Counted from the first letter of the stretch, positions 1 through 38,718 are shown. The stretch: DNA of 64,000 bases from Dehalococcoidia bacterium (GCA_965203975.1 CBDBDT010000001.1:904029-968028), one strand, 5' to 3'. Notes: generated by a model from the letters alone, not told the origin. Translations and numbers: made by a program.

Positions 1-840
1 GGTGTATTCCCCGTGAGTGAGGCAGATCCGCATCGCGCAGCGGCTGCATGGTCCGTACTGCTGTCTCTCGGTTTGGTGGAGGTTGAACCTGTCGTGAAAG
101 GGGTCCATGTACAGGAACCAGTTCCCCTGGATCTGGTCACAGTTAGTGCATACGTTGGCCAAATACTTGAAACCAACGGTTGCGCTCATGCGGCGTTCTA
201 GGTTTGCGCCGTTCTTTCTTACGAACTCGAGTTCCTCGCTGGTGAACTCATCCTGTTCGAGGGTTGACCCGTCGATGCTTCCGATGGCGACGTTCACATT
301 CTGACCGCAGTTCCAGCAGTCCTTAGTACTGACGATGATGGTCCTCATCGGCAGGGGAGTGAGACATTCCTGGCACTTCGGCCTCTGGCAGAGACGCGTG
401 TGGGCGTCGATCCTCAGGATTCCACTTTCCAGTTCCTTCAGTCTGGTCTTGATCGTGAGGGAGGCGTCGAGAGCTCTGTTCCTCCTTCTCCCGGTGAACT
501 CCCGATCAGCGTTGAGGTGGAACTCCACCACTTCGATGCCGTGTTCAAGGGCGTACTCGTGGACGTTGGTCTCGGGCTTGTGGGTGTCCACGACTTCGAT
601 GAACCGCAGGGGAACACCTTCGTGATCAAAGACTGAAAGGTCGGGCCTCACTGGCCCGACAGCTTGGTTCCTCTCGACGCTGGCTGCTCTTGCCATCAGG
701 TCGATGGTGAGTTCCTCATGGCATTCGTTGCACTGGGCGGTTGCCTCCAGGGTGCCGGCTAGATTCTCCCGGGCGTGCTTCTCCAAGATTCCCACGGCCT
801 GCTCGTGGGAACTTTCAGATCTATGTCTACTTCGGGGCAC
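1..840 (-). CDS. Putative nuclease, CoiA-like PD-(D/E)xK core plus multiple zinc ribbons (partial, C-terminus beyond left edge)
   Basis: Absent from the ORF track because it has no stop in the window. GTG at 840-838 lies 7 nt after AAGGAG (853-848). My translation is open for 280 codons to base 1. It contains RPDLSVFDHEGVPLRFIEVVDTHKPETNVHEYALEHGIEVVEF and the Cys pairs CNEC, CQRPKCQEC, CWNC, CTNC, CSRC. Confidence 0.6.
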   Translation of the reverse strand, partial: MPRSRHRSESSHEQAVGILEKHARENLAGTLEATAQCNECHEELTIDLMARAASVERNQAVGPVRPDLSVFDHEGVPLRFIEVVDTHKPETNVHEYALEHGIEVVEFHLNADREFTGRRRNRALDASLTIKTRLKELESGILRIDAHTRLCQRPKCQECLTPLPMRTIIVSTKDCWNCGQNVNVAIGSIDGSTLEQDEFTSEELEFVRKNGANLERRMSATVGFKYLANVCTNCDQIQGNWFLYMDPFHDRFNLHQTERQQYGPCSRCAMRICLTHGEYT

Positions 841-872
841 CTCTAGTCTCCTTCGCTGCCACACTTTTGTTT

Positions 873-2030
873 TCAGAGCAATTCCTCAATGGGTAGGAAC
901 CCTTGGTCCACCCACCAGTTTGGGGCCCGATTGCCTGGCATCAGGAGGTCTATTTCTTTGGCTTTCTGCCCTCCCCTTCCATGGTTATTGGAAACTCCCG
1001 GATGGGGAGCTGTAGTTTCCCGGGCAAACAGCTTCCGGCGTGGCCATGTTCCTCTCAAAGCTGAGATGCACATTTCGGAGGTTCGACCCCGGTGGTCACT
1101 ACGGACAAGTATCGCAGCTCCCTTTTTCAGGTGTCTCTTGGATTCTCGAAAGACTTCACTGATGAGCTGTTGGTAATCTGTTTGGTTCTCGAAGCGAGCT
1201 GATTTCCTCCAGTCCTTTCTGAACGGGTATCCTAGCATCCATAGCCTGATCCAGTGGTCGTTCCAGTAGTCTGTCACACCGCAGTAGGGTGGGGATGTGA
1301 GTAGCAGGCTGGCTCCAGCTTCGCCCTGAGCTTTTAGTTCCTGGCGCGAATCTCCCAGCAGGGCGGTCCCATGTGCTTGTTTTGGAATGCCGTGCTCATA
1401 ACGCCGCCGGATTTTGTCTTCCAACAAAGCCACTGGGTCCACGTCGGGAGGCCGCGAAAGCCCCTTGTCTGTCCACCAACCGACTGCGTAGCCGGGGGAG
1501 AACGCGATTGTAGGCGACATTGAGTTGGACAGGCCCGCCCCTTGCTTGTCCTGCATATGGAGCGCTATGAATGCCATCAGGGTGCGGTCCACACTGGAGT
1601 CCCGCCAGTCGAGTTCGCGGCGAGCCGATCTCAACAAAGCCCGGACCGCTGGGGACCATGCCATAACTTCAAACCGACAGCGCCCGCGTCGGTCGCTGGG
1701 ACGGCGGGCATTTGCTACTTCCGTGAGTCGGGTCACAACTTGGTCGGCCGTTGAGGCGGGGTGCAGCTTGACGGCGGCAAAGAGCCATGCGATCGGGTTT
1801 ATGTCGATTCCGAGAGCGGGTCTTCCCAAGACAGCGGCAGCATAAGGGCTGTTCCCTCTTCCGCAGAATGGATCAAGGACCAGCTCTCCTGAGCGGGTTA
1901 GATTGATAACTACGTCGCGAATGAACGCCTGCGGGAACATGGCGTAGTACCGACCGAGTCCGTACCAGCGGCCGATGGCAGTGTTCCTTGGCCATGGTTG
2001 GATAGGCTTGGGCTGGCTGGTTCGGTTCAT
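873..2030 (-). CDS. N6-adenine/N4-cytosine DNA methyltransferase
   Basis: SAM motif VLDPFCGRGNSPYAAAVLGRPALGIDINP and catalytic motif LLLTSPPYCGV. The start is taken at ATG 2030-2028, which forms an ATGA overlap with the stop of the upstream ORF. The track's longer N-terminus (to 2354) is R/P/G-rich low complexity. Confidence 0.85.
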   Translation of the reverse strand: MNRTSQPKPIQPWPRNTAIGRWYGLGRYYAMFPQAFIRDVVINLTRSGELVLDPFCGRGNSPYAAAVLGRPALGIDINPIAWLFAAVKLHPASTADQVVTRLTEVANARRPSDRRGRCRFEVMAWSPAVRALLRSARRELDWRDSSVDRTLMAFIALHMQDKQGAGLSNSMSPTIAFSPGYAVGWWTDKGLSRPPDVDPVALLEDKIRRRYEHGIPKQAHGTALLGDSRQELKAQGEAGASLLLTSPPYCGVTDYWNDHWIRLWMLGYPFRKDWRKSARFENQTDYQQLISEVFRESKRHLKKGAAILVRSDHRGRTSEMCISALRGTWPRRKLFARETTAPHPGVSNNHGRGGQKAKEIDLLMPGNRAPNWWVDQGFLPIEELL

Positions 2031-2350
2031 GGTGCAAGGCTTCGGATCAAGTCCGTACCTGCGCGGAGGGGGATCGCGGCCTGACTGTGCGCACGTCGGA
2101 GCGCTAGGAATTGGTCTGTACCCACCCCTAATGGTCCGGCCGTGTTCACTGCCGCTCCTAGCACGATGGGCTCTGCCGCGTTGGTGAGAGGTGGTTCTGC
2201 CTCCGGTTGGGCGATGTTCAGGACCAGTCGCTGGCCGGCTTTCGTCTTCATCACCATCGGTCGTCCATAGTGCGTCAGTTCTCCCCATGGCTTTGGGCTG
2301 CGCGAGTGACGGGCCACTATGTTGGCTCGAATGTAATCGTTGTCTGGCAA
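2027..2350 (-). CDS. Hypothetical 107-aa protein (possibly a C-terminal extension of NurA)
   Basis: Its stop overlaps the methyltransferase start (ATGA at 2030-2027). It is in the same reading frame as the NurA-like gene, separated only by TAG 2395-2393 and 14 sense codons. It has a TTG start and no clear RBS. Confidence 0.45.
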   Translation of the reverse strand: MPDNDYIRANIVARHSRSPKPWGELTHYGRPMVMKTKAGQRLVLNIAQPEAEPPLTNAAEPIVLGAAVNTAGPLGVGTDQFLALRRAHSQAAIPLRAGTDLIRSLAP

Positions 2351-2392
2351 CCACAGGTGATCGTTTGGGATATGTAGACCAGGTGCTGGGGC

Positions 2393-3340
2393 CTAGTCTA
2401 GCTCCTCGGCGTGGTTCACGAATGGCCCCGTTTTCACACCTGACATTACCAGTAGTAATGCCCCGGGATGTTTTTCATTGAGCGCGTTTTGGATGTTTTG
2501 AAGTTCCTTGCGAACGGCCTGTGCGAGTACTGCTACCGTTCCGAATGCCGCGAGCTGTCCGTCCATCACGAATGCAGTGTTGCCGATAGCTACTCGGCCT
2601 TGCTCAGATTGGACGAGGTACCGTAGGCTGTTCACCAAGGCCAGAATTTCCAGCGTGTCTCTGACCCGGCTGTGGCACTCTGCTGGGGAAGTGTTTTCCA
2701 AGAACTGGGTGTGGATCCGGAGGCCGTCTGTGGGTAGGACTTCGACACCGCATGCTGGGCAGTGATCTACTTGCCCAGGGTCAGGCATGCTCAGATTTTT
2801 TGTTGAGCAATCTGGATTCGGGCAGTCGTCGACTCTGTGGTGGGGACCAAGCAGGTGGTGCAGGGTTTCGGCGAAGGTTTCTCCTCCAACGCTTGCCTTT
2901 TCGAGTTCGCTGTTGAAGATTTCTCTGAACCAGGTTCTGGGATCTGTACCGTCTTTTTTCCCGGCGTTCATGCCTGGGAGTATCATGCCCAAGCTTTCGC
3001 CTTTCTCGGTTTCTCGCAGTAACCTCGGGCTGACTGCGCCGCTCTCTGGAAGGCGTTGTAGCGTTTCCAGCTTCTTCAGATCCATTACCACTACTCCCAG
3101 GGAGACCAAGCCGGCTTCCGTGGATGGAAGCGCCCCTGGGATCGGCTCGTAGATATTTGACCCGTCTATAGCTAGTATGTGAGTTCGCGATGTTCCTGCG
3201 GGGCAGGGTTGGAATGGAGGCAGGGGCAGGGGTTGCCCACTGTGCCTCTCTTGGAGTTCAGCGCGGAACGTCTCCACTACCCCGCTTTCGGCAATGGCCC
3301 GGATGGCTGCTAGCCCGGCGCGTTCGTCTTCGTACGGCAT
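2393..3340 (-). CDS. nurA: NurA-like nuclease with inserted zinc ribbon
   Basis: N-terminal ILAIDGSNIY and C-terminal AFVMDGQLAAFG resemble the NurA acidic motifs. It has a CPNPDCS...CPACG ribbon and starts 6 nt after the HerA-like stop. Confidence 0.65.
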   Translation of the reverse strand: MPYEDERAGLAAIRAIAESGVVETFRAELQERHSGQPLPLPPFQPCPAGTSRTHILAIDGSNIYEPIPGALPSTEAGLVSLGVVVMDLKKLETLQRLPESGAVSPRLLRETEKGESLGMILPGMNAGKKDGTDPRTWFREIFNSELEKASVGGETFAETLHHLLGPHHRVDDCPNPDCSTKNLSMPDPGQVDHCPACGVEVLPTDGLRIHTQFLENTSPAECHSRVRDTLEILALVNSLRYLVQSEQGRVAIGNTAFVMDGQLAAFGTVAVLAQAVRKELQNIQNALNEKHPGALLLVMSGVKTGPFVNHAEELD

Positions 3341-3346
3341 AGTGCT

Positions 3347-5575
3347 TCACAGCAACGGATGTTGGTTTGTGCGGTGATCGTTCTCTTCCATGGTCTCGCC
3401 ATTGTTGGGCGTGCTTGGGTCTTGGGCATCTTCAATGGCGAACTTGTCCAGTTGGACCGGCACTGTATACGCCTGGGACAGGGTTCTGATTCGGACGAAT
3501 CCCTGCTCGCTGACCTTGCCGATCTGGTCTGTGAAGTCGGCGAAGTCCATGTAGTCCGCCACGAACCGTCTCTCAGTGTTCGAGTTGAGGTAGGAAAGCA
3601 CCCAGTTGTCGGTTTCGGTAAGGATTTCTCGCATAACGGTACTGGGTGCCTGTGTTGCCAGTACCATCCCGATGTTGTATTTGCTGCCTTCCTTCGCCGT
3701 CTTCGCCCACACAGTTTGCAAAGCGTTCCGGGCGTTGGCGTTTGGCAACAGATTGTGAGCTTCCTCGATGTAAACGACGATGTGTCCTTCCGTCGCTTGG
3801 GACTCGTCGGGAGGCTTTGATGGATCATGTCGAGCAAGAGCGCTCCTGAACTTGGCCTGTTGGGACTGGAAGATGCGCCACATGACCCGCTCGGCCGCAG
3901 CTTGGTTTTGCTCCGGCTCTCCTGCTGACTGGTCAATGATGACTAGCTTGCCCTTCTCCAGGTCTTCGACTACGGCTTTGGCAAAGTCGTTCTCGGCTTC
4001 GGGATCGTGTTGCTCGTGCGCGATTTGGAATACCCGTGGACCGTTTGGTGTCCTAAAGATGCTGATTACCGCTTTCAACCGTTGGTCTGCCCAGGGTTCT
4101 CCACTTCCCTTCGGTCGGCTGATGTAAGCGTTCTCGAACGCTTGGTACGCCCCCCTGTTGTCCCTGACGAATTTGTCCAATGCGGTGAACACGGTTTGGA
4201 GCTGTGCCCAAGTGATTCTTCCTTGGGGTTCGTTCGCTCGCTTCAGAATCTCAGCCGCCTGATGGTACTCGGTTCTATTGTCGCTGTGCTCATTTTGGTC
4301 AAGGTCTAAGTGTTTGGTGATTTCTGGCCCGAGAAGGCTCCCTGTTCCACCCACGATCCTAAGTGATGGTTCACGAGGGGGGCGTAGCCCGGCGGCGGCG
4401 AGGGCGGTCTGGTATGCGAGAATCGTCCTTTGGTATCGTACCTGCGCCCCACGGCTGCCCGTGATGTTCTGCGGAACCGATATGTCGGCGTCACGGAATG
4501 CTGTGGTGTAGCGGTCTGTCTCTGCCTCCATGATGTTGTTGATGATCGCCCGGCCAGCCGTCAACTGTTCCAGTACAGCCTCAACTGATTCGAGCGTCAG
4601 TGGTGTCTGGAATGGGTCCCCGAAAAAGTTGAGCTTCATTACTTTGCGTTGTTTATCCCAATCTGGGGGCGGGAGTAAACCGTAAGTGGTTACTTCTGGA
4701 CCCCTAGGCAATCCTATGGTTTCGTGGACTCGATGCAGTCCCTTGCCGTCTTGGTAGGTATCCTGAGCGTATTCGCCGCTGAGGTCGAAGATGACCTGCC
4801 CCACTCGATGTTTGGGGTTGTCCTTGCGAATCTGGTAAATTAGCTCCGCTACAATTTTGAGGCCGTTAGATTTGCCGGAGCGCGACATGCCGAAGTAGGC
4901 GGTACGCCTTTTCAGGATATCTGTCGGGTTGATCCGGAAGTCCGCCCTTGTAACTCCGTCGGGGTCTGCAGCTGCGAACCTGGTGCGGCCTATTTTGGCC
5001 TCTTTCCGGGCGACCGGGATGTCGTTGGTTCGATGTTGGTGATTGACGATTAAGTCCAGCGACTCGGCATCTGGTTTCCACACCATCAGTTCATTGACGG
5101 CATAGTAGTTGGCGATGTCCTCAGCGTAGCGATATGTGCCGTCGTCTCTGGCGATGAAAGTGCCGAGCACCGAGCATTCCAGTCCGTGCAAGGACATTTT
5201 GTCTCTCACCCAATCCGGAAGTCGGTCTGCCCAGGGGCCTTGGTTTCCCGAGTCCTCTATGCTCTCTTGTCGGGTCTGGTCGTTAGCAGCCGCGGCGGGA
5301 AGGCGGGCTTCGCTTTGGATTCTGAGCAGGATGAACGACTCATCCCCTTCCTGGTTAACCTTGGCTGCCATCAGGAATCCATTCTTGGGCAGACCACCCG
5401 CCTGCTCACGGTCGTGGTCGTACACTGCAACAATAGCGTTGGTGTATGAAATGGTGTATACACTGCCGACGAATTTTGCCCGTTCACGGAACGGAGTTCG
5501 CCTGGGTTGTCCAGCACTTTGCTTCAATGATTCCAACAGGGAGGAGTTTTCCTCTGCAGATGTTCCCAGAACCAT
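3347..5575 (-). CDS. herA: HerA/FtsK-superfamily ATPase (DUF87-type)
   Basis: 742 aa with Walker A FGMSRSGKSNG and Walker B-like IVVYIEEAHNLLP. An N-terminal barrel-like segment reads GSVYTISYTNAIVAVYD. The ATQAPS motif is present, and AGGAG lies 10 nt upstream of the ATG. Confidence 0.85.
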   Translation of the reverse strand: MVLGTSAEENSSLLESLKQSAGQPRRTPFRERAKFVGSVYTISYTNAIVAVYDHDREQAGGLPKNGFLMAAKVNQEGDESFILLRIQSEARLPAAAANDQTRQESIEDSGNQGPWADRLPDWVRDKMSLHGLECSVLGTFIARDDGTYRYAEDIANYYAVNELMVWKPDAESLDLIVNHQHRTNDIPVARKEAKIGRTRFAAADPDGVTRADFRINPTDILKRRTAYFGMSRSGKSNGLKIVAELIYQIRKDNPKHRVGQVIFDLSGEYAQDTYQDGKGLHRVHETIGLPRGPEVTTYGLLPPPDWDKQRKVMKLNFFGDPFQTPLTLESVEAVLEQLTAGRAIINNIMEAETDRYTTAFRDADISVPQNITGSRGAQVRYQRTILAYQTALAAAGLRPPREPSLRIVGGTGSLLGPEITKHLDLDQNEHSDNRTEYHQAAEILKRANEPQGRITWAQLQTVFTALDKFVRDNRGAYQAFENAYISRPKGSGEPWADQRLKAVISIFRTPNGPRVFQIAHEQHDPEAENDFAKAVVEDLEKGKLVIIDQSAGEPEQNQAAAERVMWRIFQSQQAKFRSALARHDPSKPPDESQATEGHIVVYIEEAHNLLPNANARNALQTVWAKTAKEGSKYNIGMVLATQAPSTVMREILTETDNWVLSYLNSNTERRFVADYMDFADFTDQIGKVSEQGFVRIRTLSQAYTVPVQLDKFAIEDAQDPSTPNNGETMEENDHRTNQHPLL

Positions 5576-5976
5576 GATGGTCTAACTCCTGAGGTTTGGT
5601 TGCTGGAAGTATAGCAAAGGCGGACTCCCTCTTTGTTGGTTTGTTCAGGAAGGGGCTCCTGAGGGGTCTATGAGTCCATTCACAGAGCTTGACCTGCCCG
5701 TCCCGGGTGGGGGGCAATGCCCTTGGGAAATTGGTATAGTTTAACTACCATCCCGGCCACTGGAGAACTCCCTCCGCAGGCCGGGATTTTCATTGAGGAG
5801 GCTGGTGAAGATCGACCGTCCGGCACTTTCCGGCAACGCCGGAGGACCCTCTGAGGAGTTTGGACGGATGTGACGGAAACCGTAAGCGTGAGCCGGGTTT
5901 GTGAAGAAAACCAGCGTGAAAAATCACCCGAATGGTTGAGTCATGAGTCGGGTTTTGGTACGCTTGTTCGAGAAAA

Positions 5977-6876
5977 TTGAATATGAGGGGAGGGGGAGGC
6001 CGCAAGAGCTGGCACTCGAGCGGCCCGGACCGAGACACCCCGGAGCGGAGAGCAATCAAGGTGTCAACTTCCACCATATCAGGCGGCGATTACGCGCCGC
6101 AACATCGTAATGGTCTGCCCGAGCTTCTGGCGAGCTTGGATCAGCCCGCCCTGGAAGCCTACATGGCGGTCCCCGTCCCGTTGGACGGCGGGGGCGCCGC
6201 TTTGCCCCCCGGCCCGGCAGCGGCGCCGGCCTACAACCTGGAGGCCCTCCGGCTTCTGGTAGACGAACTCTGGCCTCCCCGTCCGCCCAGGTCGGGGATC
6301 CGTGGCCGTCCGCCGGTCCATCGGCTTCCAGTCGTCTGCGCACTCCTGCGGGTCTGCGACCCTTCCAGCGGGGTCGTGTACAACCTCCTGGCCGAGCACG
6401 ACAGGCTCAAGTCGGATGAGGACTACCGTCGGCAGTCCGGCTTCCTAAACCGACTCCCCTCGAGATCTGTGTTCACCAAGACCCACGACGTGATGGTGGA
6501 GTACTGGTCCCGGTTCCGGGATTGCCAGATCAGGTTGCCCGGTCCTGCAGATGGCAACGGTTCCGGCCAAGCGAGCTTCGGCGAGCAGTTGCAGCTCTTG
6601 GACTGGAACGGGAATCTCCCGCCGTTGCTCGACCTGAATGGAAGCCGCCGGTTCCCGGCCGTTTCGCAGCGGACAAACGGGGCTTCCGCGTCGGTGCCTG
6701 GCCCCGGTCCCTGTTCCCGTGGGTCCGTCGGCTATTGGCCGTCCTACAACGATGCCCGGGTACACGAGGCCGGAGACGTGATGGCTTTGCTGGGCGGTTT
6801 GGGCGATATCGTGAACCTGCTTGAGTGCGAGAATCTCCCGCCCAGGGGGAGGGGCAGGCCCAGGACTCCCCTATGA
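5977..6876 (+). pseudogene. Transposase-like ORF (IS5/DUF772-type N-terminal region), probably truncated
   Basis: GIRGRPPVHRLPVVCALLRVCDPSSGVVYNLLAEHDRLKSDEDYRRQSGF resembles the InsH/DUF772 N-terminal domain. I could not recognise a DDE core. The ORF runs straight into the acetyl-CoA synthetase remnant. Confidence 0.35.
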
Positions 6877-7198
6877 CACCCAGCTGGGGCCGGTGGTGCT
6901 CTTCGGGACCGGCGGAGTGATGGTGGAAGTCTACAACGACGTGGCGGTGCGGCACTGCCCAATCACAAAGACGGAAGCCCTGGAGATGGTCCACCAAGTC
7001 AAGGGAGTCAAGCTTCTGCAAGGTTTCCGGGGCGCCCCGGAAGCGGACATTGACGCGCTGGCGGACACCCTGGTGCAGGTCTCCCAAATGGCGGTTAACC
7101 TGGAGGGGAAACTGTCGGAGCTGGACATCAACCCCCTGATGGTGCTGCCCAAGGGTCAGGGAGTGAAGGTGGCCGACGCCCTGGCTGTGCTCCAGTAG
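6866..7198 (+). pseudogene. C-terminal remnant of ADP-forming acetyl-CoA synthetase / acyl-CoA synthetase (ATP-grasp part)
   Basis: YDTQLGPVVLFGTGGVMVEVYNDVAVRHCPITKTEALEMV...LLQGFRGAPEADIDAL...LSELDINPLMVL matches only the last ~110 aa of this ~700-aa family. No upstream part is present. Confidence 0.7.
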
Positions 7199-7268: not shown

Positions 7269-7652
7269 TCAGGCCTTTGCTGTAAAGGGCTCCAGCACTG
7301 CCAGGAGTTCCGCCATGCTGGTCAGGTCCTCCCTGATAGCCTCCGGGTCCAGGTCGCCGGCCAGCTCGTAGAAGTTTACGTGCAGGATCTCCGCCCGCCC
7401 ATGCAGGAATGGAAGGCGGTCGTTGCCGCTCAGCCGGCGGGCCTGGTTCATCACCCGGTGGAAGTGGCTGTGCCGGTCGTACTCCCAGCCCTGGACGAGA
7501 GCCACGGCCTTGGCCATGTGGGCGGCCGCGCCCCAGCCCTTCTCGGATGCCTGATGCAGGTCTCCGTCGGCCAGGTGCTGGCCGGCCCTGTCGAGGAACT
7601 CTCGTGCCTGGGTTGTGTGCCTGGCCGCTTCGGTGCTGTTTCCGTTGACCAT
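7269..7652 (-). CDS. PaREP1/HEPN-like helical protein
   Basis: 127 aa. AREFLDRAGQHLADGDLHQASEKGWGAAAHMAKAVA...LHVNFYE resembles the PaREP1/HEPN-like pattern (EK-WGA...KA, LH..FYE). Confidence 0.5.
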   Translation of the reverse strand: MVNGNSTEAARHTTQAREFLDRAGQHLADGDLHQASEKGWGAAAHMAKAVALVQGWEYDRHSHFHRVMNQARRLSGNDRLPFLHGRAEILHVNFYELAGDLDPEAIREDLTSMAELLAVLEPFTAKA

Positions 7653-38621: not shown

Positions 38622-38718
38622 GGGAGTGGATGGGGCCCGGTGGCTCTTGCGGTCTTCAAAACCGTTATGCCTCGTGAAGAGCGGGGTAGGTGGGTTCGAC
38701 TCCCTCGCACTCCCGCCA
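38622..38718 (+). tRNA. selC: tRNA-Sec (anticodon UCA)
   Basis: Hand-folded. The acceptor is GGGAGTG/CACTCCC plus GCCA. The D-stem is 6 bp with the 4-nt loop CGGT. The anticodon loop is CTTCAAA with TCA at 38656-38658. The variable arm has a 7-bp stem. The T-loop is GGGTTCGACTCCC. One mismatch each is tolerated in the T stem and the 8th acceptor pair. Confidence 0.85.

Follow-up and report, generated by a model that had tools for sequence, protein, structure and literature searches.

A three-gene cassette of HerA-like ATPase, NurA-like nuclease, and DNA methyltransferase from a Dehalococcoidia bacterium is a candidate methylation-coupled relative of TdpABC

The stretch of DNA analysed here, referred to as the window, comprises 64,000 nt from a Dehalococcoidia bacterium. 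The region under study occupies positions 1–5575, in coordinates of the whole stretch, and contains genes for a HerA-like ATPase, a NurA-like nuclease, a DNA methyltransferase, and a cysteine-rich protein. The first three genes form a conserved triad, which is a candidate anti-phage cassette related to the restriction system TdpABC. From right to left, the features of the region are:

5576–6000, minus strand: non-coding stretch upstream of the operon at the right-hand edge of a block of low G+C content; presumed promoter region
3347–5575, minus strand: HerA/FtsK-family ATPase, TdpA-like, 742 amino acids (aa); Walker A motif GMSRSGKS at residues 229–236, Walker B/sensor motif VVYIEEAHN from residue 600
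2027–3340, minus strand: NurA-like nuclease gene with an inserted four-Cys zinc ribbon; 437-codon frame broken by a TAG, assigned from relatives and a fold model
2393–3340, minus strand: first part of the nuclease gene, 315 aa, ATG at 3340; contains AIDGS, FVMDG, and CPNPDC...CPACG
2393–2395, minus strand: in-frame TAG, codon 316 of the nuclease gene, recognised by comparison with relatives
2027–2350, minus strand: second part of the nuclease gene, 107 aa, TTG start, 42 nt past the TAG
873–2030, minus strand: DNA methyltransferase, 385 aa; motif I DPFCGRG at residue 53 ahead of motif IV SPPY at residue 246; ATGA overlap with the nuclease stop
1–840, minus strand: Cys-rich neighbour gene, GTG start at 840, running off the window (full length 345 aa); putative N-terminal PD-(D/E)xK-like domain

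A check of open reading frames (ORFs) agrees with the layout given in the original prediction, which was made from the stretch alone. All genes are on the minus strand. The ATPase and nuclease genes are separated by 6 nt, the TAG is followed by 42 nt before the next reading frame, the nuclease and methylase genes overlap in ATGA, and 32 nt containing AAGGAG precede the GTG of the last gene, which leaves the window at its left edge. The motifs named in the prediction are also present: GMSRSGKS and IEEAHN in the ATPase; AIDGS, FVMDG, and CPNPDC...CPACG in the nuclease; DPFCGRG and SPPY in the methylase; and RPDL...IEVVDTHK together with several Cys pairs in the last protein. The reported dip in G+C content, from about 58–62% to about 53% at a spot in the ATPase gene, corresponds to 56.6% in positions 1–5575 versus 61.4% in the remaining window, and only 1.9% of equal-sized windows elsewhere have values as low. 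Between positions 5500 and 6500 the G+C content climbs from approximately 0.55 to 0.65. The promoter is presumed to lie at 5576–6000; a search upstream of the operon for the sigma-70 consensus, which is uninformative for these phyla, gave no match. No terminator-like site was found on the minus strand across positions 1–7000.

The region was originally divided into five genes, among them a 'NurA' gene that ends at the TAG and a 'small ORF' behind it. There are four genes, because every relative encodes one unbroken protein of 435–437 aa across both, and the 'small ORF' is the C-terminal quarter of the nuclease, split off by the TAG. Translation of the window through the TAG yields a 437-codon frame that is collinear with the proteins of the relatives from end to end, and in every fetched context the ATPase gene is followed by a single gene for a protein of 435–438 aa and then by the methylase gene. 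At the position of the stop the window reads HAEELD-stop-APAP, whereas relatives have HAEELDRAPAP (Arg, CGC) and the closest relative, locus L095, has HAEELDQAPAP (Gln, CAA). Since the closest relative has a glutamine there, one CAG to TAG transition would explain the stop. The source assembly's own gene call is likewise truncated (P0256, 230 aa). The TAG may be a real mutation or a sequencing or base-calling error. Because of the premature stop, the copy in this genome is probably inactivated and belongs to a decaying system that has retained its methylase.

The ATPase is HerA-like, as originally predicted. It matches Pfam DUF87 above the cut-off (E 7.5e-6), a dozen PADLOC HerA models with E-values from 1e-15 to 1e-6 (best 1.1e-15), and the NCBIfam model HerA_antiphage at 4.5e-14, which is far below the equivalog cut-off. 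In a phmmer search of the PDB, the best match is TdpA (E 3.8e-13). A profile of the ATPase family retrieves TdpA at 6.5e-33 over two stretches, which include the Walker A and Walker B motifs, whereas the next HerA structure has an E-value of 5.6e-17, a difference of sixteen orders of magnitude. The account of TdpABC in PMC12914056 presents it as a third phosphorothioate-based restriction-modification system and states that tdpC alone writes the mark.

The assignment of the third gene as an N6_N4 methyltransferase is supported by Pfam N6_N4_Mtase (2.2e-13) and by the PADLOC model MTase_II PDLC03325 (E 1.3e-22 over residues 28–307). The nearest solved chains, which are a TTHA0409-type methylase, N4-cytosine methyltransferases, and CcrM, align over the motif I region only.

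The similarity of the nuclease to NurA is most evident at the level of the fold. The nuclease from the window scores below the cut-off of Pfam NurA (PF09376; E 0.022), and the same model matches 16 of 32 members of the nuclease family at E 0.01 or better, with the best at 1.1e-6. When the AlphaFold2 model of the nuclease (predicted local distance difference test (pLDDT) score 78, predicted template modelling (TM) score 0.80) was compared with the PDB in Foldseek, the top match was TdpB in the TdpAB-DNA complex (8wfd_G; E 7e-7, probability 1.00, TM-score 0.42/0.50, 14% identity). It is followed by NurA of T. kodakarensis, D. radiodurans, and S. solfataricus, and by entry 3taz (E 1e-5 to 7e-4). 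All eight matches at E ≤ 0.001 are TdpB or NurA structures, which, together with the Pfam matches, supports the NurA label of the original prediction. A profile of the nuclease family found no meaningful PDB chain by sequence, and only the fold comparison was effective. Residues D59-G60-S61, E112, D260-G261, C173, C178, and C197 are invariant in the alignment of the family. An exhaustive HMMER search places 567 clusters at 50% identity in the family (E ≤ 1e-3).

The distribution of the genes was determined by scanning one genome per species with the nuclease-family alignment. This identified 124 genomes, from which 80 loci were kept; local BLASTP served to compare them with the proteins of the window. 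In 76 of the 80, the genes for ATPase, nuclease, and methylase lie side by side, share a strand, and keep this order, down to 27% identity. The hosts span more than ten bacterial phyla; as named in the records, they belong to Chloroflexota, Pseudomonadota, Acidobacteriota, Gemmatimonadota, Bacteroidota, Latescibacterota, Nitrospirota, Thermodesulfobacteriota, Spirochaetota, Bacillota, and Omnitrophota, and one record is an 'uncultured archaeon'. The stop codon of the nuclease gene and the start codon of the methylase gene share a four-base, ATGA-type overlap in 45 of the 76 loci. The motifs are retained in most of the 76 orthologous loci: Walker A in 70, xEEAH in 67, (A/V)(I/L/V)DGS in 70, hhhDG in 75, and SPPY in 74. 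The linkage of the three genes is far beyond chance. When the 3071 ORFs flanking the 76 loci were clustered, no family occurred in more than five loci, so that no fourth conserved gene was found. The conserved unit is three genes, not five. The co-occurrence of genes proposed as a check of the original prediction is thus borne out for the ATPase, nuclease, and methylase and fails for the last gene, which is present in none of the 80 loci.

The last gene was originally included as a component of the system under the label 'CoiA'. Its full-length product (P0121) is 100% identical to the part encoded in the window. Neither the last gene nor the 'small ORF' matches a Pfam, NCBIfam, or PADLOC family. 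A search for homologues of the last protein found 195 at E 1e-3 or better, and those aligned are 54–84% identical; none of the 36 homologues searched matches a Pfam or nuclease family. The residues P66-D67, E82, D85, and H87 are invariant, the homologues share at least six CxxC pairs, and the tail is rich in Glu, Gln, and Arg and ends in W..W in many homologues. The AlphaFold2 model of the protein (pLDDT 72) is confident only in the N-terminal 110 residues (>85) and in two Cys-rich beta modules. Foldseek returned weak matches only, to influenza PA endonuclease, YaeQ, and DrdV (E 4.9e-3 to 5e-2, probability up to 0.87). What remains of the 'CoiA' label is a weak signal of a PD-(D/E)xK-like fold. 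The family is uncharacterised and well conserved, and it occurs in mobile or defence-type contexts without a fixed partner.

This fold signal in the N-terminal domain would suit a composite system, made in fact of four genes, in which the Cys-rich protein is a restriction endonuclease paired with the methylase and HerA-NurA finishes the degradation. The last gene is also on the same strand as the cassette, behind a 32-nt gap with a ribosome-binding site and without an intervening terminator-like site, and locus L095, the closest relative, has the same four-gene order. However, the last gene adjoins the cassette only in the window and in L095, which share DNA that is 88% identical over 5.6 kb, so that L095 represents the same island and is not independent evidence. 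None of the 80 species-level triad loci contains the last gene, and its homologues (60–84% identical) are found without the triad (loci L010–L013 and L094): behind a pair of genes for PIN and ribbon-helix-helix (RHH) proteins in a region resembling an integrative and conjugative element, by itself among housekeeping genes, and flanked by two large genes unrelated to each other. No conserved partner was found downstream of it. The distribution largely refutes the composite model, which is very unlikely. The last gene is a neighbour, because it is absent from all of the triad loci and is found elsewhere alone, and it is a separate gene of the island, possibly a further gene for defence or of a mobile element. 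The restriction-modification logic that was originally seen between the methylase and this putative nuclease is not supported either; what is conserved beside the methylase is the HerA-NurA pair.

The cassette is mobile, as indicated by the 62–91% identity across phyla, the low G+C content, and the mobile and defence-type neighbours. ATPase homologues 62–91% identical to that of the window are present in metagenome-assembled genomes (MAGs) named Dehalococcoidia, Truepera, and Gammaproteobacteria. The clade of the window type (loci L014–L051), with identities of 45–91%, extends across MAGs of Dehalococcoidia, Truepera, Gammaproteobacteria, Acidobacteriota, Gemmatimonadota, Rhodothermales, Caldilineaceae, and Binatia. 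Several of its bin names (Aplysina 'bin90/bin61', SB0664, COS bins) point to MAGs from marine sponge microbiomes, which suggests that the clade may have spread across phyla recently within this habitat. In two Truepera MAGs, a pair of SIR2_2 and DUF87 genes, a gene resembling a type I specificity subunit, and an IS1 fragment are located 4–7 kb upstream of the triad (L001 1526–4613; L002 751–3733). Because the pair is of the SIR2-HerA type, two distinct HerA-based systems share one island in these genomes. Genes for an Eco57I-type methylase, YoeB/YefM, BrnA, and Fic are neighbours of the triad in another context, so that toxin-antitoxin pairs are among its neighbours, and resolvases and transposases occur near it in further loci.

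The same triad, with a homologous methylase (DPFSGGG...SPPY), is carried by a plasmid of Halorarius halobius. A variant is present in a temperate phage of Vibrio cyclitrophicus:

L097, 1309–5750: ATPase-nuclease pair between integrase and excisionase, Vibrio phage 10N.286.55.C4_PE001 (PQ189371.1)

The order in this phage is integrase, ATPase (29% identity), nuclease (27%), a non-homologous DPPY methylase on the opposite strand, and excisionase. The slot between int and xis is a common place for prophage accessory genes. The homologous methylase on the haloarchaeal plasmid and the non-homologous one in the Vibrio prophage suggest that the partner of the ATPase-nuclease pair is methylation as such rather than this particular methylase. 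The Vibrio phage locus also offers a ready cultured model of the ATPase-nuclease system.

HerA and NurA folds are those of the housekeeping complex that resects double-strand breaks in archaea, Deinococcus, and Thermus, and the NCBI annotation pipeline PGAP labels distant relatives of the nuclease (Tolypothrix plasmid, Nostoc, Deferribacter) as 'DNA double-strand break repair nuclease NurA'. The genes could thus encode such a complex beside an orphan methylase. The patchy distribution, with 62–91% identity across phyla, the atypical G+C content, the occurrence on plasmids and at an accessory-gene site of a prophage, and the strict operon linkage and translational coupling to the methylase argue against it. 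The ATPase scores 24–37 bits with the NCBIfam repair-HerA equivalogs, all far below their cut-offs of 800–970, and 18 of the 80 loci are not intact triads. Furthermore, no Mre11 or Rad50 family is among the recurring neighbours of the 76 triad loci. A role in housekeeping repair is, on this evidence, highly improbable.

The triad is interpreted as a methylation-coupled, TdpAB-like HerA-NurA restriction-type cassette directed against phages, the methylation-based counterpart of TdpABC, with a probability of roughly 0.6. In the proposed mechanism, the methyltransferase would mark host DNA at a short motif; the near-invariant SPPY in motif IV suggests that the mark is N4-methylcytosine. A hexameric HerA-like translocase with a dimeric NurA-like nuclease would load onto DNA, most easily at the free ends of incoming phage or plasmid DNA, and, once loaded, the complex would hydrolyse ATP and degrade the DNA processively. 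On meeting the methyl mark, the motor-nuclease would stall or be switched off, so that the chromosome would be spared. Processive degradation by HerA-NurA under modification-based self-marking was already put forward in the original prediction, and it is supported by a solved precedent in TdpAB, the nearest relative of both proteins.

The pattern of decay is as expected if the motor-nuclease is dangerous without the methylase. Full-length genes are present at all three positions in 62 of the 80 loci. In the remaining 18, some of which lie at contig ends, the ATPase or nuclease gene is short or missing and the methylase is whole; the sole internally broken methylase is that of locus L014, where the ATPase is also fragmentary. 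The window repeats the pattern, with a broken nuclease and a whole methylase. Two apparent gene fusions, of nuclease and methylase in L064 (8001–10364) and of HerA and nuclease in L082 (5751–9329), were rejected, as each junction looks like a frameshift read-through in a long-read MAG.

Several points weigh against the interpretation of the triad as a restriction cassette. The asymmetry of the decay is statistically weak, because the HerA and nuclease genes together are three times the length of the methylase gene and some of the MAGs are error-prone long-read assemblies. The similarity of the nuclease to TdpB is structural only (TM-score 0.42–0.50, 14% identity), with no sequence-level match to a PDB chain. 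HerA-NurA complexes normally need DNA ends, so that it is not evident what a methyl mark would do on a circular chromosome. A distant ATPase-nuclease pair on a plasmid of Tolypothrix sp. PCC 7910 (L096 7306–10170) is followed by genes for a 114-aa protein and an 816-aa exonuclease domain-containing protein, and there is no methylase. Because this pair has an exonuclease-domain partner instead, HerA-NurA pairs are not always methylation-dependent, and the locus may be a variant in which the same core has another function. Finally, a similar operon serves DNA donation, not defence: ICETh1 of Thermus thermophilus encodes a type IIG enzyme, a NurA-like protein (377 aa), TdtA of the HerA/FtsK family (568 aa), and a PF01555 methylase (410 aa) (PMC5365140).

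By analogy, the triad could be a DNA-processing and transfer module of a mobile element, resembling the tdtA operon, which exports donor DNA in 'transjugation', with the methylase as an accessory. Deletion of the NurA-like gene or of tdtA in ICETh1 reduces or abolishes donation, and loss of the methylase has a minor effect (PMC5365140; PMC7767461). The cassette studied here is mobile as well and is often near recombinases and transposases. Nevertheless, the gene order differs, with nuclease-ATPase in Thermus and ATPase-nuclease here, and the triad has no conserved neighbour that encodes a type IIG enzyme, an integrase, or another transfer function. Of the three genes, that of the methylase is kept most strictly, as would be expected for self-protection more than for an accessory, and the closest relatives of known structure, TdpA and TdpB, are restriction proteins. 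A transfer function is therefore considered unlikely.

No member of the nuclease family (0 of 32) matches any of the 5027 PADLOC models, and a literature search found no account of the HerA-NurA-methylase triad as a defence system, although the original Tdp paper may still mention methylase-linked homologues. This agrees with the original view that the arrangement is not a named system. The triad could found a class of methylation-based restriction systems that are ATP-driven and processive, in which a TdpAB-like machine reads a base methyl mark, probably N4-methylcytosine and perhaps through the zinc ribbon. On this view, the three genes spread together as one self-sufficient unit through many bacterial phyla; the haloarchaeal plasmid carries the same triad, and the temperate phage carries a variant of it. 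The chance that this wider claim is correct is slightly short of even. If the triad works in the proposed way, HerA-NurA shredding would serve as a general restriction module, able to pair with ordinary DNA methylation and not confined to thermophiles that use phosphorothioates, and a widespread system missed by current defence finders (124 species genomes in one scan, 567 nuclease clusters) would be added. The triad and Tdp would then form a clean comparative pair for how a ring translocase senses a mark on DNA, and the NurA-TdtA-methylase operon of Thermus ICETh1 would merit a second look. Intact copies of the triad are present in cultured strains, among them Roseibium aggregatum SY-2-12, Ruegeria sp. 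2205SS24-7, Bradyrhizobium japonicum SZCCT0231, Flectobacillus rivi LFS242W, and Bacteroides hominis CLA-AA-H207, and because of this the hypothesis is directly testable.

Three further features of the window lie to the right of the cassette:

6821–7198, plus strand: 125-aa ORF matching the C-terminal half of Pfam ATP-grasp_5 (profile positions 118–218 of 221; E 2.4e-31)
7269–7652, minus strand: PaREP1/HEPN-family gene (Pfam PaREP1, 4.5e-11), 1.7 kb upstream of the ATPase
38622–38718, plus strand: selenocysteine tRNA gene (ARAGORN, anticodon TCA; Rfam tRNA-Sec, 67.4 bits)

The ATP-grasp_5 ORF is approximately 1.2 kb from the edge of the cassette, at the jump in G+C content to 65%. It looks like a 5'-truncated remnant and may mark the scar of an insertion or rearrangement. 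The PaREP1/HEPN gene was considered as a component of the system and rejected, because related genes are directly upstream of HerA only in L003/L004, which have the same sequence, and in L057, and within 10 kb of it in L009, L031, and L036, which are too few loci. The selenocysteine tRNA gene is the sole tRNA gene in the 64-kb window.

Among known systems, MADS gives weak matches to mad8 (ATPase, 5.6e-11) and mad2 (methylase, 1.8e-6) only, which are two of its eight components. The triad shares with type II restriction-modification systems a DNA methyltransferase with S-adenosylmethionine-binding motif I and catalytic motif IV (DPFCGRG and SPPY). In contrast, no cognate site-specific restriction endonuclease is conserved, and the partners of the methylase are the ATPase and the NurA-like nuclease. 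The defence complexes SIR2-HerA and DUF4297-HerA likewise have a hexameric HerA-family ATPase as scaffold or motor; their effector is SIR2 or DUF4297, whereas here it has a NurA fold, and they lack a modification component.

Canonical HerA-NurA complexes, with structures from S. solfataricus, T. kodakarensis, and D. radiodurans (PDB 2ygk, 9x1l–9x1p, 7f6d), have the same two folds and the conserved NurA-type acidic motifs (AIDGS, FVMDG). The cassette differs from them in its horizontal distribution, its obligatory methylase partner, the zinc-ribbon insert in the nuclease, and its context without Mre11/Rad50. The ICETh1 tdtA operon, judged by its description, has a co-transcribed NurA-like gene, HerA/FtsK-family ATPase gene, and PF01555 N4/N6 methylase gene on a mobile element. 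It differs in its nuclease-ATPase-methylase order, in the type IIG enzyme within the operon, in its role in DNA donation, and in that the 568-aa TdtA is membrane-associated.

The closest resemblance is to TdpABC, structures of which are available as PDB 8wet, 8wfd, and 8y1k. An et al. (Nat Chem Biol 2025) reportedly found that the TdpA hexamer translocates DNA, that the TdpB dimer cuts it, and that contacts with phosphorothioates inhibit the machine. In both systems, a HerA-like ATPase and a NurA-like nuclease, which make up the restriction module of TdpABC, are encoded beside one gene for a DNA-modifying enzyme. Among solved proteins, TdpA is closest to the ATPase in sequence, and TdpB matches the nuclease best in structure. 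In contrast to TdpABC, the modification gene of the triad encodes an SPPY methyltransferase and not TdpC, the enzyme of phosphorothioation. At 742 aa, the ATPase exceeds TdpA (586 aa) by about 150 aa; the nuclease, at 437 aa, exceeds TdpB (358 aa) by about 80 aa and bears the four-Cys zinc-ribbon insert. The hosts are MAGs of many bacterial phyla, whereas those of Tdp are thermophiles. Membership of TdpABC itself fails on the third gene, which, judged by its domain match, encodes an N6_N4 methyltransferase and not TdpC. From these comparisons, the triad is a probable undescribed and widespread relative of TdpABC, with a methylase where TdpC would be.

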